A stretch of DNA of 64,000 bases, from positions 1,120,001-1,184,000 of the forward strand of contig OZ244057.1 in the NCBI GenBank assembly GCA_965215515.1. Reading direction: 5' to 3'. Within the stretch, counting starts at the first letter, position 1; every line of letters begins with the position of its first letter. The translations under genes and the position numbers were made by a program. This document shows, in pieces, positions 35,406 to 57,196 of this stretch. This stretch comes from Oligoflexales bacterium (GTDB taxonomy: Bacteria; Bdellovibrionota_B; Oligoflexia; Oligoflexales; JAPPIL01). The notes beneath the pieces are model-generated. The model did no database searches. It was not told the origin of the DNA and saw only the letters and a program-made list of their open reading frames with translations.

Positions 35406-35471
35406 AACTGAACTCCTCTACGTGATTGTTAGAAGCCGATAGGGTGTCCGCTTTTTACGGGGGCATCTACA
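35398..35471 (-). mobile_element. solo IS3 left end including orfA RBS and ATG
   Basis: 74 bp nearly identical to the element end at 46658-46732. Confidence 0.9.
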
Positions 35472-35633
35472 AACTCCCTGTATTTGTGTACATAAGCACC
35501 ATCGACCGTTTAGTGTGCTCGCTTTAGCTCCATCTCCCCACGTGCCAAAACTTCGGGTTAAACTGGGGGGTAATTTGTAACAATCTGTTTTTTTATCACA
35601 ATCTGCTATCTGGAGGACAAGAGAGGCTGTTGT

Positions 35634-36538: not shown

Positions 36539-36592
36539 GACCTACCTCACCAAAAAATCAACTAGTACCCGACCAAAACATGACAATACCCA

Positions 36593-37438: not shown

Positions 37439-37559
37439 CTGTGTCGACGGATTCAAACAACTGGCACTCCATTTGTCAACCCCTACAATTAGCACTTTAA
37501 CACCGCCATCTATTCGCCGATGCGCCCTCTGAAGGAGGGGTATAGGTGCGGGCGACAGC

Positions 37560-40369: not shown

Positions 40370-40420
40370 AAAAGTTGCGTCACGGGTTGAGTTGCAAATC
40401 ACAAAAAGCGAGCATAGACA

Positions 40421-40690
40421 GGTGAAGAGAAATACAGCTGCTTCAAGATTGCGTTCAAGTCCTGTGTCCGTGAACTCCCTCCCCGACAAAGAGACATCAT
40501 TTCTGCTCGCTATGAGAATAACAAAACGATTACAGAGATCGCCGCTGATATGAGGATTAGCAGGCAAGCAGTGTTCAAAAGCATGAAAATTGCTCTGTCA
40601 AAATTGAAGGAAAGTTTGACCAGCGGCACGATACAAAGACGGGTTATCGCGGTGAAAGAACTGCTGCCTCTGACATTGACAAAAGGTTGA
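40421..40690 (+). pseudogene. sigma-70 region 4 / HTH remnant
   Basis: Unlisted frame reads RELPPRQRDIISARYENNKTITEIAADMRISRQAVFKSMKIALSKLK; stop just upstream. Confidence 0.7.
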
Positions 40691-40858
40691 TAAGAGGTTG
40701 ACACTTTCAGCAGATAGTTAGGTTTCTCCAATTAGTGGCAAACACCGCAGTTATCAAAGGAGTTGCAGCATACACATAGATTTATGGCGACAAGAAATAA
40801 CAGATAATGAGGTTGACATATCCCCTTCTTAATTGAAGTCGATTCAAAAGTTGGAACA

Positions 40859-41130
40859 TTGAACTTGGCTATTGAATTCGATGCCACGCACAAAAGCCAT
40901 CGCAGCCATAGGTGCAAGCTCAATGCCTATTATGTCCAAGATAAAATTGACAGAGTGCTTTATGTGTGTGCGAGCAAATACATTTTGCACACCCTACTTA
41001 AGCTAGATGCGGAGGCAGCCGAACGACATGCGTGCCAGTCTAAATTTTACTTCGCCTTGTTTAACGATGTCACTGAAGCAAAAAACGAAATGACATTTAA
41101 AAATACGCACGGGGACATCTACACATGCAA
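40859..41130 (+). pseudogene. possible replication-relaxation (PD-D/ExK-like) C-terminal remnant
   Basis: LAIEFDATHKS...KLNAYY...VLYVC pattern; context of an integrative element. Confidence 0.35.
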
Positions 41131-41153
41131 AGCAGAAAAACGTTGCTATTGGG

Positions 41154-41605
41154 GTGGTTGCAAGGAAAATTGTAGAAATCGACACGAGCCTAGCAAAGGT
41201 GGCCAGTCAGCGGGAAAGCATCGACAAACGCTTAAGCTTCTTGCTTGAGGGTGACGATCTGGAGATGGCACAATCGTTCAGAGACGAGTATGGCAAGCAG
41301 TTTATGAGTTTGAGGGACAAGGAACGGGAGCTTGACAGCACGAAGAGAGAACTTCAACTGCTGCACAAACACCTCTTGGAGGCTCGCCCTTCCCCGCAAA
41401 GCTGGAGGGTTGGATCTTGCTAGCGAGGCTATCAGCCACATTAAGAAGGATGATTTGACCTCGCTCAAGTCTGTATACCGAAGGATGTTTGAGAAAATTA
41501 TTATCCGTCCACTGGAGGGCAAGAAAGTTCAACTGGAGTTCATTTTCAAAGATGCGATCACACCACCTAGCGGGGGTGTGGTCATGTTTTGCACAGCGGT
41601 GGGCA
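41154..41605 (+). pseudogene. large serine recombinase C-terminal remnant (frameshifted)
   Basis: Coiled coil then LKSVYRRMFEKIIIRPLEGKKVQLEFIFK. Confidence 0.6.
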
Positions 41606-41681
41606 GCCCTCCCCCCAACTGTTGCCTTCCCCAGACCACACTCCCCTATTCTACGGCCTCAATACCGATAAAGCAAAACGG

Positions 41682-41709
41682 TTGCAAACCCTGGTCATTG
41701 CGCTATAAC
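41682..41709 (+). promoter_or_regulatory. putative tRNA promoter
   Basis: TTGCAA-N16-TATAAC, 14 bp upstream of the tRNA. Confidence 0.45.
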
Positions 41710-41723
41710 ACGGGGGTGCACCA

Positions 41724-41797
41724 GCACCCGTAGCTCAGTCGGATAGAGCAGCAGGCTTCGAACCTGAAGGTCGGGCGTTCGAATCGCTCCGGGTGCG
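41724..41797 (+). tRNA. tRNA-Arg (anticodon TCG), CCA not encoded
   Basis: Cloverleaf GCACCCG/CGGGTGC, D arm GCTC/GAGC, loop CT-TCG-AA, T loop TTCGAAT. Confidence 0.93.
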
Positions 41798-41940
41798 CTC
41801 TGCATATCGGCACGCGGAATCCGTCCTCGCCAGTATTCGGCGGGGACGGGTTGTTGAAGACGAATTGCAAGCGGACTTCTGCTTCGTCCACGCGTCTAAC
41901 GGTAATCTTTGCAAATATCCGCCGATAGGTAGACCTAAGC
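41798..41940 (-). pseudogene. second serine recombinase C-terminal remnant reading into the tRNA 3' end
   Basis: LRSTYRRIFAKITVRRVDEAEVRLQFVFN is homologous to the 41154-41605 remnant; cut by an IS3 end. Confidence 0.65.
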
Positions 41941-41985
41941 TGTAGATGCCCCCGTAAAAAGCGGACACCCTATCGGCTTCTAACA
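41941..41985 (+). mobile_element. solo IS3 left end
   Basis: 45-bp exact match to IRL. Confidence 0.9.
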
Positions 41986-42127
41986 GGGGAACACTGCAAG
42001 TGTTTTGAAAAATGGGGCATCGTAGAATTATAATCAATTTGTATAAATCATACTGTTGTCTATTTTTATGTTTTCTTAAAATTGTTTCCTTAAAAAATTA
42101 GAAACAAAATTAAATTAACTAAAACAA

Positions 42128-42491
42128 GTGGCCGATGTCAGAGATGAAATCAGGTTGTTACTATGTAGGTGTAATATGGCTCGAAGGGCAAAAGAGTTAC
42201 GTCTCACCCAGCTTGAGGAGTTTTTGGGCAAGGTTGATGCCTGTGGGGCAAAATTTTCTCAACGACAAAAGAAGGAGATAGGTAAGTTCTTCCTTGAAGA
42301 TGTCATGGGCTTTACCAAGGGTGAATTTGTGTCCTGTAAACAGGGCAAAGAAACACCTGATTTTGAACCTCGCAGTGAAGATTTGTGCCCATGGGCGTTG
42401 TTTATCACTGATAAAGCTGGTGAAGAATTCCATGTTGTTATCACCAACGGCAAAGAACTTTGTGTCTTCGGTTTTAATCACGAGGTAGCTA
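42128..42491 (+). pseudogene. possible restriction-enzyme N-terminal remnant truncated by IS5
   Basis: FLEDVMGF..PDF..VVITNGKELCVF resembles HsdR_N/type IIG nuclease segments. Confidence 0.35.
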
Positions 42492-42648
42492 GGGCGTGTC
42501 GCCGTTTCGTTTAATAATTTTTTGTGTGTGCTAATCACTTGTAATTAGTAGGGCAAGCCTGTATCACATGGAAAGATATGACAATAATTTCCGGAGGTTT
42601 ACCCACGGGAGGCATTATACTCACAGATGAACAATGGTCAATACTTAA
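42492..42648 (+). mobile_element. IS5-family element, copy C (left-end fragment)
   Basis: TIR plus about 155 bp matching the other copies. Confidence 0.88.
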
Positions 42649-42795
42649 GTGCAGCTGCCGCATACCGCGAATTGCGGGGGTTGATAGCATGTGGCAGGCT
42701 GATTGATTTGGGCTAACAGATTCTCGCGTGGGAGAGGCGGGGTAGCGACACCTTCGCTACCCCGCGATACAACAATGAGGACTATGGAGGATGTT

Positions 42796-43170
42796 ATGTA
42801 TAGGCTTTTAGTGCTAACAGTATTTCAGGTGGCGCATGGTTGCGCCACAATGTTCGTCCAGACGAGCGACCGTATTACGGTTCGGAGCGAAACAAAGAGG
42901 GCGGAACTGTATCTCAACGACCGCTACCTCGGGTAGGGGCACGCCAGCGTGCGCGTGCCGAAGTATGGCGATTATGTGTTAACAGTAAAGAAGCGGGGGT
43001 GTGGAAGCATCAGCCGTCACATTGACAAGCAGTATTACCTAGGTTGGTTTTTTGCTGGGAATTGTTTATTCAGCTTCTGCTTGGGAATTTTAGTTGATCT
43101 GATGACAGGTGCGTGGATAGGACTGCATCAAAACAACTATGTCCTAGACCCAAACTGCGATGACGGCTAG
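42796..43170 (+). pseudogene. PEGA-like lipoprotein with in-frame TAG at 42934
   Basis: GCATMF lipoprotein start, LYLNDRYLG*GHASVRV continues in frame to VDLMTGAW. Confidence 0.7.
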
Positions 43171-43186
43171 TTTTAGGAGGGCGTAA

Positions 43187-43690
43187 ATGTTTGACGTGCG
43201 TATGACAATTTTTGTGTGGCTCTTTTGTTTAACTCCGTCCTCTTGTGGGACGGAGGATCCAAGAAGTCTTCTACCAGGATTGCAGGAAACTGAAAGCCAA
43301 ACAAGCAAAGAAAACCTCAATACAAAACGGAAAATGCAAGAAGAGCAAGAAGAACAGGAAGAGCAGGAAGAGGAAAAAATTGTTGCATGCTATGGCAAAT
43401 GTTATACCCGCGAGGAATTTATCGACTATTGCATGGAAGCGTTCTGCGACAGTGACGGTTGTTTTTCGCTACCCGCCTGTCAGGGGCCTGCTGGTTGGGA
43501 AGAATCGCCGTCGCTAGCTATGTGCGAATACCATCAATGCCGGTTAGGAGGCTGCGATTATTGGGGACGAGAATGTGTACCTCGGAGTGATCCCCAACAA
43601 AAACAACCGTCATTAGAATTGTGCAAATACCACCAGTGCGAATTGGATGGTTGTGACCATTGGGGGGATTGTGTGCCTCGGAGTGAGTGA
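43187..43690 (+). CDS. Cys-rich putative lipoprotein with EEQ tract and duplicated Cys motif
   Basis: AGGAGG RBS, SSC, repeat PSLxxCxYHQCxLxGCDxWG. Confidence 0.7.
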   Translation: MFDVRMTIFVWLFCLTPSSCGTEDPRSLLPGLQETESQTSKENLNTKRKMQEEQEEQEEQEEEKIVACYGKCYTREEFIDYCMEAFCDSDGCFSLPACQGPAGWEESPSLAMCEYHQCRLGGCDYWGRECVPRSDPQQKQPSLELCKYHQCELDGCDHWGDCVPRSE

Positions 43691-43917
43691 AAAATGAAAG
43701 CCAGCCCGAAAATATCCCTACTTCACTGGGAGAAATCCGTGTGTATGAATTAGTAGAGGCAGGTATGGTACTGATCACACGCGATAGCCAGTGCCTGGTT
43801 TATGCTGCAAAACAGGGGGCGTTGGGAGATTACAAAATCTCTACTGGAGCAGATGTCCCCGCACACGTACAGAATGCGGTTGCCGGGGCATGGGCATTAC
43901 GTCAAAGGGCGTGCTAA
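43687..43917 (+). CDS. small hypothetical protein
   Basis: GTGA overlap with the previous gene. Confidence 0.45.
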   Translation: MKNESQPENIPTSLGEIRVYELVEAGMVLITRDSQCLVYAAKQGALGDYKISTGADVPAHVQNAVAGAWALRQRAC

Positions 43918-44090
43918 TTTCTTTCCTCGCCCCCACGACAGCCTAATCCACCGCGATGGCAGACATAGATAACTGTCCCTATACCCGCTATACCTATCCA
44001 CAACACGGTATTGTTGCGCCTGCCGAGGCGTTTCTTTATTCCCTCTGCGATTAGTTTGACCGTCCGCTGGTCGCTCCCCATGCGGGAAGC

Positions 44091-45001
44091 CCTGAGTTCC
44101 GTGGGTAGGGCGCTTAATTTAATTTTTTGGGCGACGGAAGGCCTGATTTTGCGGTGTTTTGTCAGTCTTCCTTTTTGTAGTGCCTGACCAACTTTTTCTA
44201 TTGGCAGAGGTTGTGGGGGGTGCTACGATGAGGGCATGTTTGTACGTAAGAAAACATCCCCCAGATCTAGCAGCATTGCAGTGCAAATCGTCGAGAACAG
44301 GCGGACGGGGAGGAAAAAAAATGACACACCCAAACAGAAAGTCCTGCGACACGTCGGCACTGCTGAGCATCCCCGCGCACTATACCAGATCTTCTCGCCT
44401 TCGCCGCAACGATCATGCAGCGCATGGAGCATGACAGCTCCCCCCTCTTCAGCGATCAGCCGTTCACTCCTTCGTCCCACAAGGGGCGACGCAACGAAGA
44501 TTTTGTCGATAAGATATATCGCGTGCTGGATCAGCTGGACAGCGGTAGAGTCAAAGATCTGATCCGCAGAGCAACGCTGGGCATTATGCAGGAGAAGGTC
44601 AGTGTTTGTTTTACGATGTTACCACGCTACATTGGGATGGCATCAGCGGGTATATTACCAATTCCAAGCAGCCCGAGGGGAAGGTAATAGCCTCTTACCG
44701 TCGCCTGTGGGAAATCGAAGAAGCTTTTCGCATTTCCAAACACGATCTCAAAATGCGTCCCATATTCCACCGCAAAGGCGATCGTATCAGGGCACATCAA
44801 GACAGGAGAGCTGTGCGGCACGCCTAACATAAAAGACTCCCCGCGGGCCAAAAACCTCTGCCGCATCGTCGGACTGAAATGCTCCTCTGCACCCTTTAAG
44901 CTCTAAATTACTGCGCAAAACTTGCGCACATGTAGTGCCCTACACAGGAAGCACATCCCTGTAATTACAGTATGTTGGGAAATTTACCCGCGGAACTCAG
45001 G
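44091..45001 (+). mobile_element. IS1634-family element, internally deleted
   Basis: TIRs CCTGAGTTCCG(T/C)GGGTA; fragments MFVRKK..VQIVE..QKVLRHVG, FYDVTTL, YRRLWEIEEAFRISKHDLKMRPIFH. Confidence 0.85.
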
Positions 45002-45042: not shown

Positions 45043-47158
45043 GGGCGTGTCGCCGTTTTGATTCTATTATTTTAACAACTCCCTAGTGTTGCGTGGCATA
45101 GCGTGGATGACCAGACAACAATGCATCCAAGTAAGAGCATGCCTTCGTAGTTTCTTTTCAGCTTTTCATATCGTGTGGCAATAGACCTGAAGTGTTTTAG
45201 CCTTGCAAATAAATTCTCAACCTTAGGCCTGAGTTTATATGCTTCTTTACAGAAAGACTCGTTCTTTTTACTAGAATTACTCCTTCTTGGTATGACAGGA
45301 TTGCCCCCGTTATTTTTGGTTATTTCTCTTATCTTATCATCATCGTAGCATTTATCAGCTCGGTAATGACAAAATCAACAGGTCGAGCCATACTGTCTGC
45401 TACCATACTAAAATGACGTTGCCAGCTTGAGGCAAATTCTCAAGCAATTCTTCGGCCATCACAGCGTCATGCACCTGCCCTTCGGTAATGACAAAATCAA
45501 CAGGTCGAGCCATACTGTCTGCTACCATACTAATCTTCGTCGTGTGGCCACCAACTGACTTGCCAATAGCGGCCTCTTCGCCTTTGCGAGTGGAGTTGCT
45601 CCCAAAAAGCGGACAGTCTACCCAGCCTGTTGAAACTCCATGTACATCCTAGGTGACATCATGCCAAGTGCTTTGTGTGGTGCAACGTTGTTGTATTCAT
45701 CAAACCAGACATGCAATTTTTGCTTGACCACATCTGCTGAACTCAAGTTACTGACATAGGCATAGTCTCGTTTAAAAGTTTTCACGAACGCCTCCGCCAT
45801 ACCATTGCTTGCGGGGCTGTATGGTCTCGTAGTACAAACATCAAAGCCCAGATACTTGGCAAACGTTGTCGTCTGCCTAGCAACGTAACAGGGCCATTAT
45901 CCGATAGCCACTGTATTCTGTGCGGCAATTCATCGCCAAAACGTGCACCTACACAGTCAACCATCAAGTCTCTAACGAGACCACCATCAACGCCGCATGT
46001 CGAGCACGCCCAGCTGATTACCTCACGATCGTGGCAATCCATGGCAAACACAACCTCGAGACACTCCCCGTTATCGCACTGGATTCTGAAAGTATCCGAA
46101 CACCATCGAGTGTTGCTCCTCAACGTGGCCACCTTACCTTCGTGAACCCTTGTTGGCCTCGACGCATGCCTTCTCAACAGAAGATTATTGCGCTTCATGA
46201 TCCTGTAAACACGTTTATGATTGACCGCTGAAACAGCAAGGTCTCGTCGCAGCATGGCAGTCACCCGACGATACCCATAGGTGACCTTCGTGCGGATGAT
46301 CGCTAAAATACGCCGCAGAACGCTGCTGTCGCTCTTTTTCTGCCGCGAGAGCCTCTCCGAGTTACCCCTCATCTGCTTGTAGTAGTTAGACCTCGATGCC
46401 CCTAAAGCACGACAAATAGCCTTCACTGGAAACCTTCCACCCCTTGCAATGGTTTGTACGAAATCAACTTTTTTTTTCTGGCCACGAGCGAGACCGACAT
46501 GCCTGGTTGATAGGTTTCCATGACTATGGCCTGCTTTTCCGCTGGCCCCCACATCCGCCTTTTCCTGGTTAGAGAAAGCGGAACATCACCTTGCCGTTGC
46601 TCTGCAACAACGGCCGCTCCCTCTCTATCGGGTGCCTCCGAACTTACGAAACGATCACTAACCATAACTGAACTCCTCTACGTGAATTGTTAGAAGCCGA
46701 TAGGGTGTCCGCTTTTTACGGGGGCATCTACAGCGAGCACCGCTGCTGTGTTGATGTGCCTTGACGATCGTAGCGTCTATGGACACGTTGCCCAGATCAC
46801 AATGTACCAGATAGCTGTCAAAGACAGATTGCAGCTTACCGCTCTTTCCTCAGTCCGTAAAGCGTTTGTGCAGTGCTCGCCAGTCGCCGTATTTTTCAGG
46901 CACACATCGCCACGGACACCCTGACTTTAGCTTAAAAAATACCACGCACAGTCAGACGCAGCCTCTTCTTGCGATACACGCCCGCCTCCAACAGTTTGTT
47001 TTTAAGTATTGACCATTGTTCATCTGTGAGTACAATGCCTCTCATGGGCAGACCTCTGGAAATTATTGTCATGTCTTTCCATATGATGCAGGTTTGCCCT
47101 ACTAATTACAAGTGATTAGCACACACAAAAAATTATTAAACGAAACGGCGACACGCCC
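45043..47158 (-). mobile_element. IS5-family element, copy D, interrupted by IS3
   Basis: Both TIRs, TA duplication in CTAG; carries the IS3 and a 52-bp insertion. Confidence 0.92.
45591..46732 (-). mobile_element. IS3-family (IS2-like) element, defective, nested in IS5
   Basis: TG...CA ends, imperfect IRs, 5-bp target duplication GCGAG; orfA 46423..46665 shortened, A9G slippery site; orfB YGYRR, WCSD, SDNG, frameshift before MAEAFVKTFKRDY. Confidence 0.93.
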
Positions 47159-47211: not shown

Positions 47212-47274
47212 TGAACTCCTATACGTGATTGTGAGAAACCGATAGGGTGTCCGTTTTTTACGGGAGCATCTGCA
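47212..47274 (-). mobile_element. diverged solo IS3 left end
   Basis: About 63 bp with several substitutions; supplies the stop codon of ORF 47258..48508. Confidence 0.8.
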
Positions 47275-48508
47275 CGATGTCGCGGTAGATATGGCGGTAA
47301 TCGTTTTCGTCGTCAATCGAACCGAGATAATCTACCAAGCGTTGTCCGCCACCGTCGATGGCGTAGTTTTCAAAATCCGACCAATCTACTCGTATCTTCA
47401 TCGTCTTTTCCCTAAGTTCAGCATATCTTTCGTGATACATACCAACAGTTGAATCCGCGGGAATCAGTAAAGGTTTGAGTTCTGTTGCCGATGCCCTTTC
47501 GGATCGGAAAACATAGTCCGGATACGGATATCGAAACAGATCACCATCCGTAGATGTTAAGCCGTAGAGACGATAACGGCGTTCAAGGGTAGCGCGTTGA
47601 CCGTGCAGATAACCTAAATCTCGCAAAATTTGTTCAATATCGGGCATGGTGCACAGATGGCTGACCACACAGAGCGTTGAGGGTAGTGAGGCGAGAACTA
47701 CGACAACCAGGAACGCATCTTCTCTGAGCCAAGATTGGCCACATTTCACTTTGCTAGCAGCATCGTAGGAATGTGTTGAAATTAAACCGTTTTTCATTTT
47801 CCGGTATTGGACGAACAGCTTACCGTCTATGTCTAGCCGGACGGCACCGTCTGCTAGCTCTACATAGCTGAAATCACGACCTGATTGATCAGTGTAGTTG
47901 CTCGTCCCCGGTTCGGGAAGTGTCGCCTTCAAACTCAAATCAGAAGTATGAAAATCGGTCAGCGCGGTCGTTATCCTGTTCAGAGGGCGTTGGTAATATC
48001 CGCCCGGCACACCGCGGCCGGGACCATGATACTTGCCGTCTCTTGCTAGGAGGCGTTCTAGGATCGTCTGTTCAAAAGCTGCTTCTAGTGCGGTCACCGG
48101 ATCTGGGGTCGAGTTTTTGGTAATGACGGGTTGAATGCAGTAATCACCGATCAACGCGATTTGGTAGTTGCTACCTGCAATCTGATCGGGTAGTTCTCTC
48201 AGCAAAGCGAGCATTTTTTCTGTCTGCTTTTTATCTCTCTGGGCGTAAAGACCCTGCGGGCTATAGCGATGTTGTAAAGAAGGGTCGACAACTAGCAACA
48301 CGTCTAGCGGGGGTAACTCAACTTGAGCTGTTGCCTCTTGAGCTGTTGCCTCTTGAGCTGTTGCCTCTTGAGCTGTTGCCTCTTGAGCTGCTGCCTCTTG
48401 AGCTGCTGTTTTCTGGTCAGTGACCAGTCCACTCACTTGACACGCGATCGCAGCCGATAACAAACCGGTACCGACCAATCTCGATTTCATAATCCCATCC
48501 CCAATCAT
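47258..48508 (-). CDS. putative lipoprotein with QEATA repeats and degenerate vWA-like domain
   Basis: AIAC lipobox-like; LDVLLVVDPS and WLREDAFLVVVVL resemble vWA strands; 3' end formed by an IS remnant. Confidence 0.6.
   Translation of the reverse strand: MIGDGIMKSRLVGTGLLSAAIACQVSGLVTDQKTAAQEAAAQEATAQEATAQEATAQEATAQVELPPLDVLLVVDPSLQHRYSPQGLYAQRDKKQTEKMLALLRELPDQIAGSNYQIALIGDYCIQPVITKNSTPDPVTALEAAFEQTILERLLARDGKYHGPGRGVPGGYYQRPLNRITTALTDFHTSDLSLKATLPEPGTSNYTDQSGRDFSYVELADGAVRLDIDGKLFVQYRKMKNGLISTHSYDAASKVKCGQSWLREDAFLVVVVLASLPSTLCVVSHLCTMPDIEQILRDLGYLHGQRATLERRYRLYGLTSTDGDLFRYPYPDYVFRSERASATELKPLLIPADSTVGMYHERYAELREKTMKIRVDWSDFENYAIDGGGQRLVDYLGSIDDENDYRHIYRDIVQMLP
48323..48410 (-). repeat. 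15-bp coding tandem repeat (QEATA, about 6 copies)
   Basis: TTGAGCTGTTGCCTC repeated. Confidence 0.9.
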
Positions 48509-48591: not shown

Positions 48592-48673
48592 TGTAGATGC
48601 CCCCGCAAAAAGCGGACACCCTATCGGCTTTTAACAATCACGTAGAGGAGTTCAGTTATGGTTAGTGATCGTT
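48592..48673 (+). mobile_element. solo IS3 left end
   Basis: 82 bp including RBS and ATGGTTAGTGATCGTT. Confidence 0.9.
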
Positions 48674-49330
48674 CCGCATCTGGATGTGTTGCAAGGCACG
48701 TTCAAGCAGAGTGAATTTGCTGCCGACTTGACCCAAGTTGGGCATGGCACAGCCACACCTGAGTATAGCGAAGCACAAAAATTGCTAGGTTTGTGCATGC
48801 CCAACCATACTATTGCTAACTACGAGGATGTGCTAAAGAGTTGCGTCTCACTCATCTTGAGGAGTTATACTCGTGGGCTTTGTTCGTCACAAACAAAGAA
48901 GATTTGCGAGAAGAGTATGACCAAAGAGCTAGCTCTTACCTACATCCTGATAAGGCTGGAACCTGTATCACTACTGAAAAGAATTATCAAGATGGCCTGC
49001 CCACCAAAGGGATTATCTGCTGATTTCTTTGCAGGGTGTGCCAGTACTATTAGTGCAGCACATGAACTTAATTACAAGTGGCTTGGCTGCGATGTCTCTA
49101 AAGATGCTATTGCTGTTATTCGCAAGCGTATGGTCAAAGAGCATAAACTGAGAGTTGACGTAATCAGGGTTGGTACTTTGTCTAGAAAAGAAATCTATAA
49201 GCTTAGTCCCTTTGAGTTTGAAAAGAAAATGGTATCATTATTGCAAAAAGCTTTGCTAAAACTGCTTATGAAGAGGTTGATCGCTTATTTAATGAAGAAA
49301 GGTTGTCAATTGATCTTGTTCCTAGCGACG
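48665..49330 (+). pseudogene. chimeric remnant: DUF499-type ATPase N-terminus + N6/N4 DNA methyltransferase C-terminus
   Basis: VPHLDVLQGTFKQSEFAADL..TPEY; PVSLLKRIIKMACPPKG..ADFFAGC..AAHELNYKWLGCD; LSPFEFE. Confidence 0.7.
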
Positions 49331-49364
49331 ACATCATACGAGATGCGGCATAGACCCAAAACCC

Positions 49365-49751
49365 TCAAACCAAAATACTTTTAGTATAGACAATGCCTTT
49401 CTTGCCCCAAAAAGTAACAGGTGGGTCGATAACTTTAACAATCTCAACATGCCAACCCCATTTTGGTTTCTTCCATGCCCAGGGTGAGTTTTTATCTGTG
49501 CGGTGGTAATGATAATCGGCATAGAAAGTTTTGCGGTTGGGGTATTTTAAGCACTTGGTGAATTTGATGATAGCTGTAGCACGAGACTTGAACTTACCTC
49601 TTTGGCCTGGGGTTTCGATAAGTAGCATCTCCTTGTTAAGATAATGTGGTGGGAGAGGATAAGTGCGAGTTTCAATGATTTTTTTGCCTGCAATGATTTC
49701 TCTGGAGATAGGCCATTGAATGTTGATACCTGTGTAGGTTTTTTTAGTCAT
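49365..49751 (-). CDS. ASCH-domain protein
   Basis: INIQWP...IIAGKKIIETR (GxKxxExR motif). Confidence 0.8.
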   Translation of the reverse strand: MTKKTYTGINIQWPISREIIAGKKIIETRTYPLPPHYLNKEMLLIETPGQRGKFKSRATAIIKFTKCLKYPNRKTFYADYHYHRTDKNSPWAWKKPKWGWHVEIVKVIDPPVTFWGKKGIVYTKSILV

Positions 49752-51132
49752 GATGGTTGAGGGGGCGATGCAAAGTGCTTTTGTCGTAAGGCTTGAGGCA
49801 CTTGTTGTTAGTGTGTTTCATGCGCACATCCCAAGTTATATCACGCGCGGTTTTGGTTTTAGCAAACTTCTCGACGCGATCTATGGCATTGCAACAATCC
49901 TTCTTATTAGACCACAGGTCTTGATCTTGCCAAAAATGACTTTCGCCATTGCCGATGTAACAGGTGGTGAATTGCATGCCTCTTTGTTTACACTTGGCAT
50001 GAATGCGTTCATAGTAGGCTCTGATCTCGGCATCGCTATAGTGAAAGTCTCGTGATTTTTTCTCGGTGAAGATCGCCGTCTTTTTAGTATCGTCGCGGTA
50101 AAATTCTCGCAAATTTCGCCCGCTAGCCTTTTCTATTTGATTGAGAGAAAAACTCGAAAGTCTGACGATACCCGCTAAAATCGCTGGCACGCCGTGTTCA
50201 GCAACAGCATCAACTATCTCAAAACTGGAATAGTGGAAAGGCTCAGGCATATTGTTACGATCAAAGTTAGGATCAGTGAAATAACCATCGGGATAGATAG
50301 GAAAGAAGGGGTTAAGCCTTGCCGTTGTCCAAAAGCCATTGCGCACCAGCTTTTGTAAAGCCAGCAATCGCCGCTTAGCGCTGGGTGCACCTGGCTCTAT
50401 CTGACGGTTCATGGCATCGTCAATCGAAGCAATACTCATCTGTATTGAACAAAGATCAGCACGTAGCAACTGCATATATTCATCGTGGGCAATCAAATCG
50501 GAACGCGTAAAGATGATATAAGGATAATCGTAGTAGTTGAGAATTTTGAGCAGTTCTTGTGTGACTTGGTATTTCTTATCTATAAACATGAAAGAATCAG
50601 ACATCGAGCCGATGCGCAGTGGCACACGCATCTTAAGCATTTCTCGCCAGCGAGACATGTTATCGGTCTCAAAGGCATAGTAAAAAGTTTTCCAGATTTC
50701 AGTAATATCGACAGGCATGGGGAAAGGACGATTCCAGTAGGCATGCACGGTAAGTTCAGCCTTGGCATAGCAGTAGACACAGTTGTGAATACAGCCCCGC
50801 CCATAAGTATCGACTTCAAAAGCATAGAGGCATTGCTGGCAAGTGTTGTGACTGTTGACCAGCTTAAAGGGACTTTGAAACACCACCCCGCCGCGTGGTG
50901 GACGAGCCGCAAACCTAGTTTCTAGCCGTTTATAGATCTCAAAATCGAATTCACAAGGATAGTTAGACAGCTTGGCAAGCTTCGTTGCTCGCTCAGCAAT
51001 CCTATCGAACTTGGGTGTCGCAGGCTGTGGCGGCCTGTCCACACGAGGGAAGGGGATAACATTACTGACACTGCTGGGGGTAAGCGTATCCATAACGATA
51101 CCAACGTATGCCTCAACAGCCCCTGCTGTCAA
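49744..51132 (-). CDS. radical SAM protein, spore-photoproduct-lyase-like (start possibly 51093)
   Basis: DTYGRGCIHNCVYCYA (CxxxCxxC), RIGSMSDSF, IFTRS, IEPGAPSAKRRL, RLNPFFP. Confidence 0.88.
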   Translation of the reverse strand: MTAGAVEAYVGIVMDTLTPSSVSNVIPFPRVDRPPQPATPKFDRIAERATKLAKLSNYPCEFDFEIYKRLETRFAARPPRGGVVFQSPFKLVNSHNTCQQCLYAFEVDTYGRGCIHNCVYCYAKAELTVHAYWNRPFPMPVDITEIWKTFYYAFETDNMSRWREMLKMRVPLRIGSMSDSFMFIDKKYQVTQELLKILNYYDYPYIIFTRSDLIAHDEYMQLLRADLCSIQMSIASIDDAMNRQIEPGAPSAKRRLLALQKLVRNGFWTTARLNPFFPIYPDGYFTDPNFDRNNMPEPFHYSSFEIVDAVAEHGVPAILAGIVRLSSFSLNQIEKASGRNLREFYRDDTKKTAIFTEKKSRDFHYSDAEIRAYYERIHAKCKQRGMQFTTCYIGNGESHFWQDQDLWSNKKDCCNAIDRVEKFAKTKTARDITWDVRMKHTNNKCLKPYDKSTLHRPLNHHD

Positions 51133-51208: not shown

Positions 51209-51260
51209 CGTAAAAAGCGGACACCCTATCGGCTTCTAACAATCACGTAGAGGAGTTCAG
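51209..51260 (+). mobile_element. IS3 left-end internal fragment near the right island boundary
   Basis: 52-bp match lacking the terminal 12 bp. Confidence 0.85.
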
Positions 51261-51317
51261 GTACAACTTACCTGTTCAAATAGTTTATTTTTCTGCGTAA
51301 GATATGCTCACCCACTG

Positions 51318-52400: not shown

Positions 52401-52490
52401 CTAAATTTATTGATAAAAAAATGAATAACCTAACGAGTAGGCTAAAATTTACCGATGGAAGGGTGCTGGCGGTTAAGCGAGTGTGCGAAC

Positions 52491-53900
52491 ATGAGACAAC
52501 GTGTAGTAACTCTTATCCTCGTCGTTTTAGCAGTAGTGGCTTGTGGTGAGGATACACAACATTCGACTCCATCGTTTATCTCCAACGACCACCACTTCGG
52601 TGAGGGTAATCAGTATGTGCGCATGTTCACCGAGCATGTGCACGACGAAACCTGGCACATAACCTACACGGCGGAAGTGGAACGAGATTTTGAAGCGGCG
52701 CTTACTATCGCTTTGCAGACCTGGTTGCAACCTCTACGTGAGATAGAGCTGAATAGAGATATCGTCGATGATTTCGAATTTTATCGCAGCAACGCTATCG
52801 ATACGCTCGGCACTAACACCATCGCCTGGGACGATGTTCTCTTCAGATCTCGGTTTACTGCAGGCAGCGGTGGCGACAAAGCGGGACTTTACGAATCAAC
52901 ATACTTTCCACCACAAGGGGTTTTTTTCCCACCGATACCCGACCTACCCCGCGACTTACCACTGCTCACCGTGTTCGAGGTCGATGAAACTGCCACCGAT
53001 ATTACCACGGATTCCTACTTCATGTTCGTCCTCATGCACGAGGTGGGACACGGTTTCGGTTTAGCCGACACCTACGCAAGTTTCAACGCTGACGGCACTG
53101 TAAATAGACAGGGCAATCAACCTGTATCGGTGATGGCAGGTGACTACGTAGCATTCGCTTACCCGCCCATCCTCGCCGCGGACGAAAGAGTAGAACTGGC
53201 TAGCGATGACATCAGAGGCTTGCTGTGGACGTACAAACGCGTCACGGGAGATGTCGATGACATAACCGACTGCGGCGAAGACTACGAATACGAGAACTCG
53301 CCGCGCGGCTGCATCCCCAGCACGCCTCCCGAACCTCCGCCCCCTGAACCACCGCCTCCCGAACCTCCGACTCCCGAACCTCCGCCTCCCGAACCACCGC
53401 CTCCCGAGCCTCCGACTCCCGAGCCTCCGACTCCCGAGCCTCCGACTCCCGAGCCTCCGACTCCCGAACCACCGACCACTTGTGCCGCTAACCCTTGTGC
53501 TGACACTTGCTTGGTAGGGTGCATCTATCGCAGCTGCGGTCGCAGTTACGCCAACCCCGACACACGCTACCGCACTTCCTGCTATAGCAAGAATACCCGA
53601 CAGTGGTGTGGCAGTGCGGGGCGAGGACGCAACGATGTTTGCCGCAAAAAACTACCCGCACAAGAACCACCATCCACCAAACCACGCCCACCTGCCAGCG
53701 ACGACAGACATGCCGTCCAGTGCTGTGAGGAGGAGTTCAGTTGCACCGCCTGGCCTGGCAGGGCAGACATCTTTCTATGTCGCGCGGCCCAGGAAGATGA
53801 GATACTGCCCATTCACCCGTCACCCTGCTGCCAACCCTATGCCTACGAGTGCGACAGCTGGCCAGGGCGAGCGAGTGCCGCGCTATGTTTTGGTCTCTGA
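52491..53900 (+). CDS. lipoprotein zinc metalloprotease with Pro-rich linker and Cys-rich tail
   Basis: VVAC lipobox; HEVGHGFGLAD followed by SVM (Met-turn-like). Confidence 0.8.
   Translation: MRQRVVTLILVVLAVVACGEDTQHSTPSFISNDHHFGEGNQYVRMFTEHVHDETWHITYTAEVERDFEAALTIALQTWLQPLREIELNRDIVDDFEFYRSNAIDTLGTNTIAWDDVLFRSRFTAGSGGDKAGLYESTYFPPQGVFFPPIPDLPRDLPLLTVFEVDETATDITTDSYFMFVLMHEVGHGFGLADTYASFNADGTVNRQGNQPVSVMAGDYVAFAYPPILAADERVELASDDIRGLLWTYKRVTGDVDDITDCGEDYEYENSPRGCIPSTPPEPPPPEPPPPEPPTPEPPPPEPPPPEPPTPEPPTPEPPTPEPPTPEPPTTCAANPCADTCLVGCIYRSCGRSYANPDTRYRTSCYSKNTRQWCGSAGRGRNDVCRKKLPAQEPPSTKPRPPASDDRHAVQCCEEEFSCTAWPGRADIFLCRAAQEDEILPIHPSPCCQPYAYECDSWPGRASAALCFGL
53325..53478 (+). repeat. 15-bp coding tandem repeat (PEPPP/PEPPT, about 10 copies)
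   Basis: CCCGAGCCTCCGACT-like units. Confidence 0.9.
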
Positions 53901-53925: not shown

Positions 53926-56247
53926 TCAGTGCGGCACCGCGATGCCTGTAGCCCCCCATATCCGCAGAGGGACACGTAACTTGTCGCATACGGCACGCAT
54001 GTCCTGTGCTGGCGCGGGGACGGCGATGACCTCCGTAGCGCGTCCTAACAACAAGCGACACCAGGCACAGGTGCGCAGCCACTCCACTGCGGTAGTGTGT
54101 GGCGCGGCGAGCACCCACACGCGCGGAGGTTGCTCCCCCTCTCGCCAAGATAGCAGACGTGTCATAAGCTGCCCTCGCTGTTCCATGTCGTCAAAGTTTT
54201 CCACCTGCAACGTCGCTACGGTGCTGACCTCGGCAGTACAGTTGCGCAAGCTGGTTGCACACAAGTTGTCGCGCCGCAGACGCACGGCCAAGTCCAGCAA
54301 GCTGCTGAGTGCGAGTTCTCTGAGGTGTGCTTGTTCGATAGGCAGATTGCATGGAGCAGGTTGGGTGGTAACACGCAAAGACTCGTAGAGCGAATCGCGT
54401 TCCACCGCCGTCTTCCCAGCCGCCGCGATCATTGCCGTTAGGCGTTGTTCAGGCAAAACTCTGCCTGCACGTCCCCCCGCCATGTGCGAAATTTTTTCGT
54501 CTTCCACCGTGCCGTCAAGATCGTTCGCTCCCCCATGCAAGGCGAGCTGGGCAATTTCCGCCCCTAGCATTACCCAATAAGCCTTGATGTGGCGAAAGTT
54601 GTGCAGCAACAAGCGTGCGATGGCCACAGTTTTCAAGTCATCGCCCCCACACGTGTAGTTGTCGATGCCCATGTCGTTGCCTTGCGGTTGAAAGGCCAGC
54701 GGAATAAAAACGTTGAACCCTCCTGTCTCCTCTTGTAGCGTGCGCAGCCGCAGCATGTGGTCGACCCGCTGGGTGTAGGTTTCGATGTGGCCGTACAGCA
54801 TGGTGGCATTGGAGCGCAGACCTAATCTGTGCGCGGTGCGGTGCACATGCAGCCAGGTCTCAGCATCGACTTTTGTGTCGCAAATTTTGCTACGCACTTC
54901 GGGGTGGAAAATTTCCGCCCCTCCGCCAGGCAACGATCCTAACCCCGCGGCCTGCAAATCACGCAACACCTTCTCGATGCTCTTGCGTCCTCGCCGTGCC
55001 ATCCATTCCACTTCGACCGCGGTGTAGGCTTTGATGTGCAGGGCGGGGGCTGCTTGTTTGACTGCTGCCACCAAGTTAAGCATGTCGTCGTAACGCCAGC
55101 GCGGGTGCAGACCGCCGACGAGGTGCACCTCGGTCGCTCCCTGTGCTGATGCCTGTTGTGCGCGCCGTTTAATTTCGTCTTGCGACAGGGCGAACGCACC
55201 TTCCTCGTTAGGTTTACGAGAGAAAGAGCAGAACTTGCAGCGCAACACACAGATGTTGGTAGGATTGATGTGACGGTTGACGTTGTAGTAAACCTGCTCA
55301 CCGTTGCGCATGCGGTTAATTTCATCGGCTAAACGCATAACTGCGAGCAACTCGGCTTGTTCGAATAAATAAACTGCCTCTTCTCGCGTCAATATCCCTC
55401 CCGCGCGCAGTTTAGCGGTGATCGCGGACGTTTCTAACCTAGGCTGGCCATGCCACAGAAACTCCAGACCTTGCCTCGTTCTGTCATCGAGTTGCAGGGT
55501 CTGAGCGTTGACATAGCGTGCGATATAGACATCGCCCAAGGTGGTGTCGAGGCGCGTCGCAGCTTTCTCCGTCGCGGCGCGCACAGTTTCTTGGCGATGT
55601 GCCAATCCGTACTCGATACTGGTTCGCAACAAGGCCGTGATCCGCTGTCGTGTGCCCCATGGCAGGCGTTGCGCGATGACGTTGACCCCCAAGGGTAGGG
55701 GCAATTCATACCGTTCTTGCCATACCGCACCGAGATCGAGCAGACATGTCAGACCGTGCTGGGCGTAGGTGAGCTGTAGTTCATGAATGACCACCCCCGC
55801 CTCGGCTTCGCCTTCCAACACCGCGGCTACGATATGCAGAGAAGGCCGTGGCAGCGCGTCAAATTCGGGCAAGATGCGCCGCAAGGCCAGGTAGGCTGTG
55901 GTCTGCAGGCCTGGCACGGCGACACGTTTGCCGCGCAGCTGTCGCCAATCGGATTTATTCTTTTTGGCGATGACGATCGGCCCCGTAGTTTCAGCCACGC
56001 TTGTGCCGACATCGAGCAATTGGTAATGATGCGAGACACGGGGGTAAGACGCAGCGCTGATTGCACTGACATCGAATGTGCCTTGCACGGCCCTGTCGTT
56101 AAGTTCCTGAATGTCGCCGCGGTAGAAAGTAAACACGAAGTTTTCCCACGCGATTTTTTGGTTTTCCAGTGCCCACAGCATGAAAGCATCATCGCTGTCT
56201 GCGCTGTAGGCAATGCTGAGATGTTTGGGGTCAGAGGATGATCTCAT
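53926..56247 (-). CDS. mqnD-mqnE: fused 1,4-dihydroxy-6-naphthoate synthase (MqnD) - aminofutalosine synthase (MqnE) with extra C-terminal domain
   Basis: YSADSDDAFM, VAVPG..TTA, VIHE, LPLPLG; NPTNICVLRCKFCSF, LPGGGAEIF, NATMLYGHIE, HIKAYWVM; ATG at 56247. Confidence 0.88.
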   Translation of the reverse strand: MRSSSDPKHLSIAYSADSDDAFMLWALENQKIAWENFVFTFYRGDIQELNDRAVQGTFDVSAISAASYPRVSHHYQLLDVGTSVAETTGPIVIAKKNKSDWRQLRGKRVAVPGLQTTAYLALRRILPEFDALPRPSLHIVAAVLEGEAEAGVVIHELQLTYAQHGLTCLLDLGAVWQERYELPLPLGVNVIAQRLPWGTRQRITALLRTSIEYGLAHRQETVRAATEKAATRLDTTLGDVYIARYVNAQTLQLDDRTRQGLEFLWHGQPRLETSAITAKLRAGGILTREEAVYLFEQAELLAVMRLADEINRMRNGEQVYYNVNRHINPTNICVLRCKFCSFSRKPNEEGAFALSQDEIKRRAQQASAQGATEVHLVGGLHPRWRYDDMLNLVAAVKQAAPALHIKAYTAVEVEWMARRGRKSIEKVLRDLQAAGLGSLPGGGAEIFHPEVRSKICDTKVDAETWLHVHRTAHRLGLRSNATMLYGHIETYTQRVDHMLRLRTLQEETGGFNVFIPLAFQPQGNDMGIDNYTCGGDDLKTVAIARLLLHNFRHIKAYWVMLGAEIAQLALHGGANDLDGTVEDEKISHMAGGRAGRVLPEQRLTAMIAAAGKTAVERDSLYESLRVTTQPAPCNLPIEQAHLRELALSSLLDLAVRLRRDNLCATSLRNCTAEVSTVATLQVENFDDMEQRGQLMTRLLSWREGEQPPRVWVLAAPHTTAVEWLRTCAWCRLLLGRATEVIAVPAPAQDMRAVCDKLRVPLRIWGATGIAVPH

Positions 56248-57196
56248 GTACACGCTCCGTGCCGTAGAGGTTTTTGATTTTGTGCAGCTGTGTCTGTGCT
56301 TGTAGGGGGTGTAACAACGACAACACACACCCTCCACCCCCCGCTCCTGTCGATTTGGCCGCGGGGACACCCAGGGCTTTGACGGTTTCGATAATCTCAA
56401 TCAAGTGTGCAGTGGTAATGCCCGCGGCACGCAGCATCACGTCTACCTTGTTCATCGCGAGTGCTACGGGTTCGAGTTTACCCCGTGTCAAGGCGCTAGC
56501 GACGGTGCGGGCATGTTGCGAAAATTTTCTCAAACTGCCTCGCTCCCGCTGAAACCACGGCAAGGCACGGTTAATCATCGCGAGGGTTGAAGCACGCACC
56601 CCGCTGTCGATCAGCACAAACCGCCACGGGTGACGACCGCCTGCGAGGGGGGTGATGTTTATCCTGTAGGGGGCGTGATTTTTCTGAAAGAGAAGCGGTG
56701 CTGCACATGCGGCGACGGCGGTGTCCAGCCCTGAAGGGCTACCGTGAAAACGCAGTTCGAGGTAGTTAGCCAGCCGTGCGACTTGCAGGTCGGTTAGTTT
56801 GCGTCCTGCCCAGCCGCCCAGCAAACGAATCAGAGCCACACTCAAAGCTGCCGATGACCCGAGACCCGCGCCGATCAGCGAGTTGGAGCGAAACTTGATG
56901 GCTAGGGGGAACGGGTTAATTTGTAAAACTTTAAACGCATCGCACACGACATCCTTCAGGTGTTGTAGACGTTGGCGGCTGAGCGGTAGCGAGCCGAGCT
57001 GGAGACGGCAATCTGGTCGGTGACTGGGGGTCATGGTCAACTCGGTGACCAGCGATTTAACGGGGATCGCGACTGCTTGTGCTCCGTAGACGACGGCATG
57101 TTCGCCGACGATGATCGCTTTGCCACAAGCTGCGTGCCTTGTCCGTGTTGCCGCGGTGGAGGGGCTGACGTTAGCGGCGGTGTTGGGGTCGTTCAT
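56231..57196 (-). CDS. mvk: mevalonate kinase
   Basis: GKAIIVGEHAVVYG, GAGLGSSAA, HGSPSGLD, AKSTGAGGGG. Confidence 0.92.
   Translation of the reverse strand: MNDPNTAANVSPSTAATRTRHAACGKAIIVGEHAVVYGAQAVAIPVKSLVTELTMTPSHRPDCRLQLGSLPLSRQRLQHLKDVVCDAFKVLQINPFPLAIKFRSNSLIGAGLGSSAALSVALIRLLGGWAGRKLTDLQVARLANYLELRFHGSPSGLDTAVAACAAPLLFQKNHAPYRINITPLAGGRHPWRFVLIDSGVRASTLAMINRALPWFQRERGSLRKFSQHARTVASALTRGKLEPVALAMNKVDVMLRAAGITTAHLIEIIETVKALGVPAAKSTGAGGGGCVLSLLHPLQAQTQLHKIKNLYGTERVHEIIL

Follow-up and report, generated by a model that had tools for sequence, protein, structure and literature searches.

What does a radical SAM enzyme resembling spore photoproduct lyase (SPL) do beside a small ASCH-fold protein, amid the remains of restriction-modification genes? 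The two genes in question lie on the minus strand of the window (the whole 64,000-nt stretch of DNA that was analyzed), at 49744..51132 for the enzyme and at 49365..49751 for the ASCH-fold protein, and overlap by 8 bp, exactly as originally predicted. The explanation that we favor, at a probability of roughly 35%, is that the pair comprises a reader and a radical enzyme, and that it would serve adenine-methylating restriction as an accessory by undoing or rewriting a mark on a DNA base; this reading draws on genomic context and fold. Both genes are real and not chance open reading frames, because they have 883 (enzyme) and 255 (small protein) homologue clusters and show low dN/dS between paralogues. 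The radical SAM module is present in at least 174 metagenome stretches. Eleven runs contain this stretch or part of it, and no RNA run is among them.

The radical SAM gene had been described as encoding 462 residues. This is indeed the maximal open reading frame, opening at a TTG, but the protein is probably 449 residues long, from the ATG at 51093, because the TTG falls within a conserved TTGACA hexamer and this ATG is itself conserved. The hexamer (51127..51132, minus strand) lies about 35 nt 5' of the ATG and is kept in the three intact paralogues, according to a by-eye alignment of the upstream regions. It is possible that it serves as the -35 box of a promoter belonging to the cassette; a consensus promoter scan did not call TTGACA as a promoter, and a good -10 element downstream of it is absent. 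The protein is matched by the Pfam model PF04055 (32 bits versus a gathering score of 29.5). Its cysteines follow the pattern first read from the sequence, with the cluster motif CxxxCxxC at C114, C118 and C121, the CQQC motif at C98 and C101, and, toward the C-terminus, C391, C413 and C414. An alignment of 22 diverse homologues keeps all eight without exception and has no invariant cysteine between C121 and C391.

The 128-residue small protein (AF2 pLDDT 89) was originally called an ASCH protein with a GKKxxETR motif. The motif is present, as GKKIIETR, and the predicted fold is that of ASCH, but no sequence model detects it as such: no Pfam family, including ASCH (PF04266), matches up to E 10, and there is no match in NCBIfam, PHROGs or PADLOC at E 0.01. 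The ASCH identity is visible solely in the predicted structure, for which Foldseek returns E values of 2e-4 to 3e-3 and a probability of 1.00 to 2dp9, 5guq, 5y7d and 6kir. The top matches are TTHA0113 (2dp9), the Zymomonas ASCH protein (5guq), EOLA1 and the ASCH domain of TRIP4 (8yfi), and the best PDB fold matches have TM scores of 0.59-0.69. By this model the protein is a member of the ASCH structural family, with a PUA-like beta-barrel and a motif of the GxKxxExR type, which we take to be the motif named for ASCH. More specifically, K24, E27, T28 and R29 do not vary among 33 homologues, and a Trp-rich stretch, SPWAW..KPKWGW, is conserved in the family. A PDB sequence search with the ASCH profile gave a chance match only (Patched-1, E 1.5). 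A search for fused forms, in which the ASCH part is contained in a longer protein, found none, which is weak evidence, and one look-alike cluster in the Atlas carries PF04266 on 20% of its members, a lead only. The modeled likeness to YqfB is weak; this protein (9kyf) is found at rank 26 among the fold matches (E 0.11, TMq 0.46), and the small-protein motif has a Glu at the position compared, where in YqfB-type N4-acylcytidine amidohydrolases a Thr presumably replaces the motif Glu in the catalytic set.

At the junction of the two genes, CATCATGACTAA, the ASCH gene begins before the radical SAM gene has ended, within the overlap ATGACTAA (49744..49751, minus strand), and a comparison of this junction in the intact copies A, B and C of the same genome finds a GTG as the ASCH start in B and C. 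Judged by this arrangement, the ASCH gene is translationally coupled to the radical SAM gene. Among metagenome loci an ASCH gene adjoins the enzyme in 67 of 80; in 11 of the 13 others the contig stops at the enzyme gene, leaving 69 testable loci, 67 of which have the ASCH gene with the enzyme. The pair is likewise adjacent in 16 of 17 genome loci, in 3 of which the order is swapped and the adjacency kept. Where both open reading frames were called (61 metagenome loci), 38 overlap and 19 are separated by 0-40 nt (57 of 61). Conservation of the neighborhood, the test set by the original prediction, was thus found both for the ASCH partner and for the linked restriction and defense genes described below. 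In 47 of the 69 testable loci the pair has a small RHH-like gene at its head; this gene is absent in this position from the window's own genome. Prediction of a complex between the enzyme and the ASCH protein scored 0.00 in two runs, which is evidence neither way.

In many uncultured bacteria the pair directly adjoins restriction systems that methylate DNA. DNA methylase domains occur in 30 of 51 immediate downstream neighbors, and restriction-type helicase or nuclease domains in another 10. Neighbor HMMs seeded from neighbors already seen, whose counts measure recurrence and are not an unbiased census, find a methylase in 25 of the 28 loci whose flanks reach 8 kb or more, place 37 of 43 methylases no farther than 200 nt from the pair, and find none of the five modeled neighbor families in 12 of the 55 loci flanked by 2 kb or more. 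The methylases belong to two unrelated families, with DPPF or NPPY as motif IV, both of which we take to denote N6-adenine enzymes, and the link holds across these two families and across 45-70% identity. The link to restriction-modification and defense also extends to the window's own genome and to relatives in its phylum. The pair usually converges on the methylase, tail-to-tail and in many loci with gaps of 0-15 nt, and therefore does not form one operon with it. In PADLOC-DB 2.0.0 at E 0.01, no family matches either protein of the pair, and the neighbors alone match. By its recurrent adjacency across distant homologues the pair falls, as a working class, among the accessory modules of restriction-modification-like systems. 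The literature searched yielded no description of a radical SAM and ASCH pair, and the conserved pair is apparently undescribed so far; an article by Iyer et al. in NAR in 2013 reportedly discusses ASCH in DNA-modification systems and may bear on this novelty.

In the window itself the convergent neighbor is a chimeric remnant (48665..49384, plus strand) that joins an HmaC-like N-terminus to C-terminal pieces of an N6_N4 methylase-Mrr protein. It had been read as a methylase/DUF499 remnant. The methylase part of this reading stands, with Pfam N6_N4_Mtase over residues 100-152 and a C-terminal methylase end at about 99-160; for DUF499 there is no Pfam match in this open reading frame, and residues 2-40 (39 residues) match the PADLOC HmaC model at E 1e-13. 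A tblastn search with the paralogous methylase-Mrr proteins matches at 48959-49237 and 49231-49350. The same kind of search locates a detached N-terminal fragment at 42128..42514 (plus strand), which is 66.7% identical to copy E's intact methylase-Mrr protein over residues 1-140 of the latter. This fragment and the C-terminal remnant are on the same strand, about 6.3 kb apart, with an IS integrase remnant (45782-46552) between them, and it looks as if the methylase-Mrr gene of the window was split by inserted DNA. A matching of pairs to methylases by type within the genome was dropped, the methylase fragments of the window resembling different paralogues at their two ends.

The window's own genome contains six copies of the pair, three of which are intact (A, B and C). 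Comparison of the paralogues gives a dN/dS of 0.04-0.06 for the enzyme, at a dS of 0.6-1.35, and of 0.13-0.23 for the small protein, and the three intact copies are under strong purifying selection. Intact pairs occur beside broken methylases (copies A and C) or without an adjacent methylase (copy B). Reciprocally, the sole intact methylase-Mrr gene, in copy E, adjoins a destroyed radical SAM gene; neither the pair nor the methylase, therefore, depends on its partner in cis. The original picture of a pair preserved amid restriction-modification debris is upheld in this genome, where the adjacent methylases are mostly broken. The duplicated unit consists of the two genes only, and all copies are found in islands with recombinases, AbiE, ThsB-TIR and IS elements. 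Of the 15 methylase-HMM pieces in this genome of 2.18 Mb, 7 adjoin copies of the pair. According to blastn, the cassette is also bracketed by two copies, in the same orientation, of a dispersed repeat of about 85 nt that occurs in at least 25 places in the genome; one copy (48592..48676) lies beyond the methylase remnant and the other (51209..51263) just upstream of the radical SAM gene.

Relatives of the enzyme are also encoded by 11 viral contigs, as proteins of about 282 residues that correspond to the enzyme core only. Next to these lie a B12-binding radical SAM gene, a PAPS-reductase-like gene and, as a weak match (E 0.003), a methylase, and the surroundings have the look of DNA-modification clusters. 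The Atlas look-alike clusters are largely viral. A tblastn search of the ASCH protein against 50,697 phage records returned no match. Nearby phage proteins of 180-200 residues with a K-x-I-E-T-R motif were considered as ASCH relatives and rejected (profile-profile probability 0.6%; no Pfam match).

How might such a module work? In the reading that we favor, it would consist of the radical SAM and ASCH proteins, with the RHH-like gene in front in most other lineages. The ASCH protein would recognize a modified base on DNA through its PUA-like fold, GxKxxETR motif and Trp-rich loop. The SPL-like enzyme would then cleave S-adenosylmethionine at the [4Fe-4S] cluster held by CxxxCxxC, and the resulting 5'-deoxyadenosyl radical would abstract a hydrogen from the base or its substituent, so that the mark is reversed or removed by direct reversal of the SPL kind; C98, C101, C391, C413 and C414 possibly form a putative second metal site. 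The enzyme might act on the cell's own DNA, against methylation that is aberrant or unwanted, or on invading DNA, against protective modifications whose removal would re-expose that DNA to the neighboring restriction enzymes. We infer that the substrate is DNA, as well as which base is attacked and which way the reaction runs; an RNA substrate finds no support in the genomic context. In favor of reversal, the nearest named relatives of the enzyme, PA0069 and Rv2578c, are SOS-linked and of repair type. Against it, the association with restriction is by neighborhood only, the SPL catalytic cysteine has no obvious counterpart, the extra cysteines could equally serve the chemistry of a writer, and the viral look-alikes in apparent DNA-modification clusters fit a writer at least as well.

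Alternatively, the enzyme may be a second-step writer, a tentative reading that is the best placed of the rivals. The methylase would make N6-methyladenine and the enzyme, aimed by the ASCH protein, would abstract a hydrogen from the methyl group or base, turning it into a more elaborate self mark, one that would be read differently by restriction enzymes or phage counter-measures. Consistent with this are the closeness of the pair to methylases of two families, both with an adenine-type motif IV, and the five extra invariant cysteines, which could form an auxiliary cluster as in group-inserting or oxidizing radical SAM enzymes. The company kept by the viral core relatives and the largely viral make-up of the Atlas look-alike clusters point the same way. 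However, in the window's own genome pairs stay intact next to methylases that are broken, and an intact methylase-nuclease has a destroyed radical SAM gene for a neighbor, so that neither needs the other in cis, and the nearest characterized or regulated relatives (SPL, PA0069 and Rv2578c) point to repair. A further tentative reading is a DNA mark editor in the service of restriction systems, in which the ASCH protein presents the base and the enzyme strips or rewrites N6-methyladenine or a phage hypermodification in an oxygen-free reaction.

The tail-to-tail layout with the methylase, its short gaps and the RHH-like gene at the head of the unit also recall convergent restriction-modification pairs with a control protein, and the pair could accordingly be imagined as a restriction-type effector that, under RHH control, damages DNA lacking or carrying a mark, with the convergent methylase protecting the host. 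PUA-like domains sense marks in modification-dependent nucleases, and the weak fold matches of the small protein include VcaM4I and the McrB N-domain. This is unlikely, given that three intact pairs in the window's own genome reside beside broken or absent cognate methylases with no evident harm, and that neither gene matches a PADLOC model.

Similarly improbable is an independent passenger, with a function apart from restriction (repair of DNA lesions, or RNA or nucleotide chemistry), that accumulates in mobile, methylase-rich defense islands. The island setting of all own-genome copies, the duplication of two genes only and the presence of housekeeping neighbors at some loci (sigma-54 regulators, a PLP enzyme, an MFS transporter) would fit such a passenger, as would the fact that some ASCH proteins act on RNA or nucleosides (PDB titles 5guq and 9kyf). 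Against this, the frequency of methylases among downstream neighbors and within 200 nt is far above the approximately 15 pieces per 2.18 Mb of the methylase-rich own genome, and the link is kept over wide divergence and both methylase families. An ordinary SPL repairing UV lesions, the outcome contrary to the original prediction, is very improbable: SPL does come first among the structural matches and shares the YCY and EPG motifs, but the identity is 14-17% with no significant sequence match (profile E 0.029), and the near-obligate ASCH partner, the extra invariant cysteines, the C-terminal extension of about 70 residues, the multiple copies in restriction islands and the relatives in Oligoflexales and Bacteriovoracaceae all speak against it.

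In the usual view, restriction needs two activities: self DNA is marked by a methylase, and DNA lacking the mark is cut by a nuclease. A widespread, repair-like third component found with several unrelated methylase and nuclease architectures would imply an unrecognized step, which could be the editing, proof-reading or erasing of DNA marks; the module is compact (two or three genes) and is therefore testable in a laboratory host. For the SPL-like radical SAM proteins of COG1533 type in organisms other than spore formers, PA0069 and Rv2578c among them, we know of no substrate, and a defined genomic partner and context offer a concrete way in. An enzyme that demethylates DNA or removes hypermodifications would be useful for epigenetic analysis. 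Were the mark-editor reading true, no radical SAM enzyme before this one would have been shown to erase a base modification in DNA, and the arms race would gain a new layer, with modified phage DNA re-exposed to neighboring nucleases.

The pair can be compared with several known systems. For standalone ASCH or EVE proteins beside restriction-modification genes, binding to modified DNA and a part in aiming or tuning restriction have been predicted (PMC7641849; Bell, Wolf and Koonin 2020), and the contexts given in the available portion of that work are Type I restriction-modification, GNAT/PIN and DUF499, as well as toxin-antitoxin systems. The sole radical SAM protein in that portion is cobalamin-dependent and accompanies EVE in Alteromonadales, and no SPL-like partner appears there. 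The small protein shares the common beta-barrel of the solved ASCH proteins, among which, by PDB entry titles, the TRIP4 domain was solved with double-stranded DNA; it differs in its own invariant Trp-rich loop and has no PDB sequence match. Protein B of the 'Radical SAM mobile pair' (TIGR04470), from another SPL-like radical SAM subfamily, by its family name also belongs to a two-gene unit on mobile DNA, but the enzyme scores 47.7 bits against its cut-off of 410, and the TIGR04470 partner is another radical SAM protein, not ASCH.

The best named sequence relatives of the enzyme are PA0069 (NF033668, E 8e-23) and Rv2578c (NF038135, E 1e-17), which match over core residues 93-282. The enzyme does not reach the cut-off of any named NCBIfam family, including these two (81 versus 360 bits for PA0069 and 63.9 versus 430 for Rv2578c), and a plasmid search with it gave only distant matches of the PA0069/Rv2578c type at 23-28% identity. 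In the literature examined, these families have no described function, ASCH partner or restriction link. As far as the accessible parts of the sources go, Rv2578c has a LexA site (PMC3381160) and PA0069 is listed among SOS genes (bioRxiv 10.1101/2022.03.14.484287), ties which suggest that both work on damaged DNA.

Structure prediction, the comparison with SPL that had been proposed at the outset, gave an SPL-like enzyme: SPL is its best structural match (PDB 4FHC, 4FHF and 4K9R), with the SPL fold over the whole chain. At the sequence level a phmmer search against the PDB finds no match at E 1, and the enzyme profile aligns with SPL over two short stretches only, which contain the shared motifs GC..C.YCY and EPG..S...RL; the YCY is invariant in the enzyme. 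In SPL the H-donor cysteine, as we understand it, follows the cluster motif, with a Tyr pair around the third cluster cysteine; no invariant cysteine of the enzyme is found at the H-donor place, and C98 or C101, upstream, might substitute for it. Unlike SPL, the enzyme has five extra invariant cysteines (C98, C101, C391, C413 and C414), and its C-terminal extension, beyond residue 393, is outside the SPL match. The named Oligoflexales and Bacteriovoracaceae in which its relatives are found are presumably not endospore formers. SPL is a stand-alone enzyme of endospore formers, whereas this enzyme has a near-obligate ASCH partner and a restriction-island context.

The 462-aa radical SAM ORF and the 128-aa ORF of the original prediction are both present, at 49744-51132 and 49365-49751 on the minus strand, and overlap by 8 bp (junction sequence CATCATGACTAA). 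The TTG start of the longer ORF makes up the first half of a TTGACA hexamer; the three intact paralogues of the same genome all share this hexamer along with about 45 nt upstream. Because paralogue comparison reveals a conserved ATG at 51093, the radical SAM protein is probably 449 aa long. Since a consensus promoter scan called no promoter at the upstream TTGACA, we can only infer it to be a candidate promoter element.

The two genes are rarely found apart. In protein searches the enzyme has 883 homologue clusters and the small protein 255, and many contigs are apparently common to both lists. Across the phylum and the named MAGs the genes are adjacent at 16 of 17 loci; three of these 16 (L043, L044 and L050) have the gene order swapped with adjacency kept. 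The ASCH gene was found in 67 of 80 enzyme-bearing metagenome loci, and 11 of the 13 misses are contigs ending at or just past the enzyme gene, so that the real misses are 2 of 69. The neighbourhood conservation proposed earlier as a check on the pair therefore holds in 67 of 69 testable metagenome loci. Where both ORFs were called (61 metagenome loci), they overlap in 38, by 4 nt in 17 and by 8 nt in 5, and are separated by 0-40 nt in 19. A search for fused enzyme-ASCH proteins or longer ASCH proteins found none, a result of little weight.

The longer ORF scores 32 bits with the Pfam radical SAM model, above the gathering score of 29.5. Its best named relatives are the NCBIfam families PA0069 and Rv2578c, with scores of 81 and 64 bits that are far under the respective cut-offs of 360 and 430. 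Both families are tied to the SOS response, as the accessible text of two sources describes a LexA site at Rv2578c (PMC3381160) and includes PA0069 among listed SOS genes (bioRxiv 10.1101/2022.03.14.484287). Some homologues carry the UniRef label 'SPL family radical SAM protein' or the JGI label 'DNA repair photolyase'. When the suggested structural comparison with spore photoproduct lyase (SPL) was run, all six top Foldseek matches of the model (pLDDT 86, built on 22 homologues) were spore photoproduct lyase. The enzyme profile matches the SPL sequence weakly (E 0.029), with GC..C.YCY and EPG..S...RL aligned. Invariant residues include the cluster cysteines C114, C118 and C121 and five further cysteines (C98, C101, C391, C413 and C414), of which C413 and C414 lie within a tail of about 70 residues outside the SPL match; a second metal site formed by the extra cysteines is offered as a proposal only.

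Pfam gave no match to the small ORF at a threshold as loose as E 10, nor did NCBIfam, PHROGs and PADLOC at E 0.01, and a profile of the ORF found nothing meaningful in the PDB. The AlphaFold model of the small protein (mean pLDDT 89, from 33 homologues) has as top PDB match the ASCH protein TTHA0113 (2dp9; E 2e-4, TM 0.66-0.68). Other best fold matches are Zymomonas ASCH, EOLA1/CXorf40A and the TRIP4 ASCH domain, whose structure was solved with double-stranded DNA. YqfB is a weak match, ranking only 26th by fold. K24, E27, T28 and R29 of the motif GKKIIETR are invariant, and the Trp-rich stretch SPWAW..KPKWGW is largely so.

Viral contigs (L135:3401-5976, L139:7971-10537, and L137, L138 and L141) encode a mini version of the enzyme core of about 282 aa, adjoining a second radical SAM protein of 374 aa, or of 411 aa with a B12-binding domain. 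Nearby lies a protein of 180-200 aa that contains a K-x-I-E-T-R stretch; its kinship with the ASCH partner is unsupported (hhalign probability 0.6%).

The genome of the window, searched as a single contig of 2,180,710 bp, contains six matches to the enzyme (copies A-F, copy A being the pair in the window) and five to ASCH. The copies are homologous, with 82-91% nucleotide identity, only across the two genes and a short stretch, a few tens of bases long, upstream of them. From the high dS between enzyme copies (0.58-1.35) and the low dN/dS (enzyme 0.037-0.062, ASCH 0.13-0.23), the copies appear to be old and kept by selection. Copy A was accurately described as intact among restriction-modification debris: its pair is whole and its methylase fragmented into an N-terminal piece (42128-42514) and C-terminal pieces (48959-49350), with roughly 6.3 kb of DNA, part of it IS, in between. 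The pair is also intact in copy B, which has no adjacent methylase and lies among serine recombinase, ThsB-TIR and AbiE genes, and in copy C, beside which a 496-aa methylase-Mrr ORF (L013:7086-8576) lacks the region of the DPPF motif, its N-terminal domain being in a different frame. Copy D combines an N-truncated enzyme containing an in-frame TAG, an intact ASCH and a methylase remnant, while copy E retains the last 100 enzyme codons, an intact ASCH and the sole fully intact methylase-Mrr fusion among these copies (610 aa, DPPF). Copy F is an enzyme fragment without ASCH, beside a methylase-Mrr (L016:11008-11595) whose N-terminal domain was lost through insertion of an IS integrase. The methylase-Mrr genes of copies C and F, intact-looking as ORFs, are probably defective. 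None of the six loci retains enzyme, ASCH and methylase all whole; whole triplets occur in close relatives, at L020 (603-aa methylase-Mrr) and L048 (632-aa methylase-HNH). In the genome of the window, the pair and the methylase-nuclease each persist without needing the other in cis.

Among 51 immediate downstream neighbours in the metagenome loci, Pfam places DNA methylase domains on 30 (28 of Eco57I type or its TaqI_C end, two of N6_N4 type) and restriction-type helicase or nuclease domains on 10 (DEAD+MZB, MZB, ResIII, four SNF2/helicase C-terminal including two with PLD, two McrBC, and Uma2), and finds no match on 11. Local HMMs were seeded from neighbours already seen, so that their counts measure recurrence and do not amount to an unbiased census. 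They detected a methylase in 43 of the 80 metagenome loci; among loci flanked by 4 kb or more the figure is 34 of 43, and among those flanked by 8 kb or more it is 25 of 28. No more than 200 nt separates the pair from 37 of the 43 methylases. The same HMMs found 15 methylase pieces across the 2.18-Mb genome of the window, seven of them beside copies of the pair. Six of the seven N6_N4-type neighbours checked have DPPF as motif IV, which is absent from the defective copy C ORF; in Eco57I-type neighbours the motif reads NPPY. We take these motifs to mark both types as N6-adenine and not N4-cytosine enzymes. The pair is found beside methylases of two unrelated families, both presumed from motif IV to act on adenine, and also adjoins several different nuclease/helicase sets.

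In other lineages a conserved small ORF (about 60-80 aa) lies upstream of the enzyme, ending at or just within the start of the enzyme gene, in 47 of 69 metagenome loci having enough upstream sequence and also at two other loci, L021 and L041. Its pattern, (K/R)xVRF...EE..I..FL..NP..DFS.LAR.AI..FI.NP, may be read as that of a ribbon-helix-helix regulator. The window's genome has no credible copy of it, the best match (E 0.033) lying elsewhere in the genome.

A decayed defence island at 33686-44600 (G+C 0.42-0.49 vs about 0.55) contains DDE transposase fragments, an SNF2 fragment, a PIN and DUF4325 (STAS-like) pair, and a 499-aa DEAD helicase with a separate MZB/DUF1998 fragment, resembling DISARM- or Druantia-type helicase pieces. 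A dispersed repeat of about 85 nt (core ...AAAAAGCGGACACCCTATCGGCTT...), located by blastn at 48592-48676, 51209-51263, about 46647-46732 and 47212-47275, is present at 25 or more sites of the 2.18-Mb genome and may be a MITE or IS end; two same-orientation copies flank the radical SAM-ASCH cassette and methylase remnant. An ORF at 47258-48508 (minus strand) has a signal-like start, AQEAT repeats and no family match. The 481-aa protein at 52455-53900 (plus strand) matches no Pfam family; it combines a zinc-protease-like motif (HEVGH) with a long PEPPPPEPPT repeat and a tail rich in Cys. At 53926-56400 (minus strand) a single 824-aa ORF fuses VitK2_biosynth (menaquinone, futalosine-route) with radical SAM and CofH/MqnC C-terminal parts, normally separate enzymes.

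The small protein, of a reader-type fold, and the radical enzyme, of DNA-lesion-lyase type, nearly always occur together and are maintained by selection. Independence from cis partners is easier to reconcile with a helper than with a toxic arm or an essential step of self-marking. Because this independence suits a helper, the nearest named relatives are SOS-tied and SPL reverses a lesion, the reading placed first, tentatively and with a probability of about 0.35, is that the pair reverses or 'erases' a modified DNA base. The target would be either aberrant methylation of the cell's own DNA or marks that protect invading DNA. Ranked close behind, and itself doubtful, is a second-step writer, which is favored by the extra invariant cysteines and by the location of viral relatives in modification-like clusters; as an essential self-marking step, however, it is disfavored by the lack of need for a cis partner. 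The same observation counts against a toxic arm, and a restriction-type effector is accordingly improbable, as is, to the same degree, an unrelated passenger carried beside these genes. An ordinary SPL is very unlikely. A minor share, short of the writer's and above the effector's, is left to other readings.

The literature searched describes no SPL-like radical SAM enzyme paired with ASCH; Iyer et al. 2013, possibly relevant, lies outside its coverage. Kaur et al. 2024, in its accessible text, presents only an ASCH-nuclease fusion. The closest treatment is that of Bell et al. 2020 (PMC7641849), in which standalone ASCH and EVE proteins lie beside Type I restriction-modification and other systems; unlike the pair described here, those systems include no SPL-like radical SAM enzyme in the accessible part of that paper. 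The pair is read as a restriction-modification accessory assembled from known folds, with a fair chance of concealing new chemistry.
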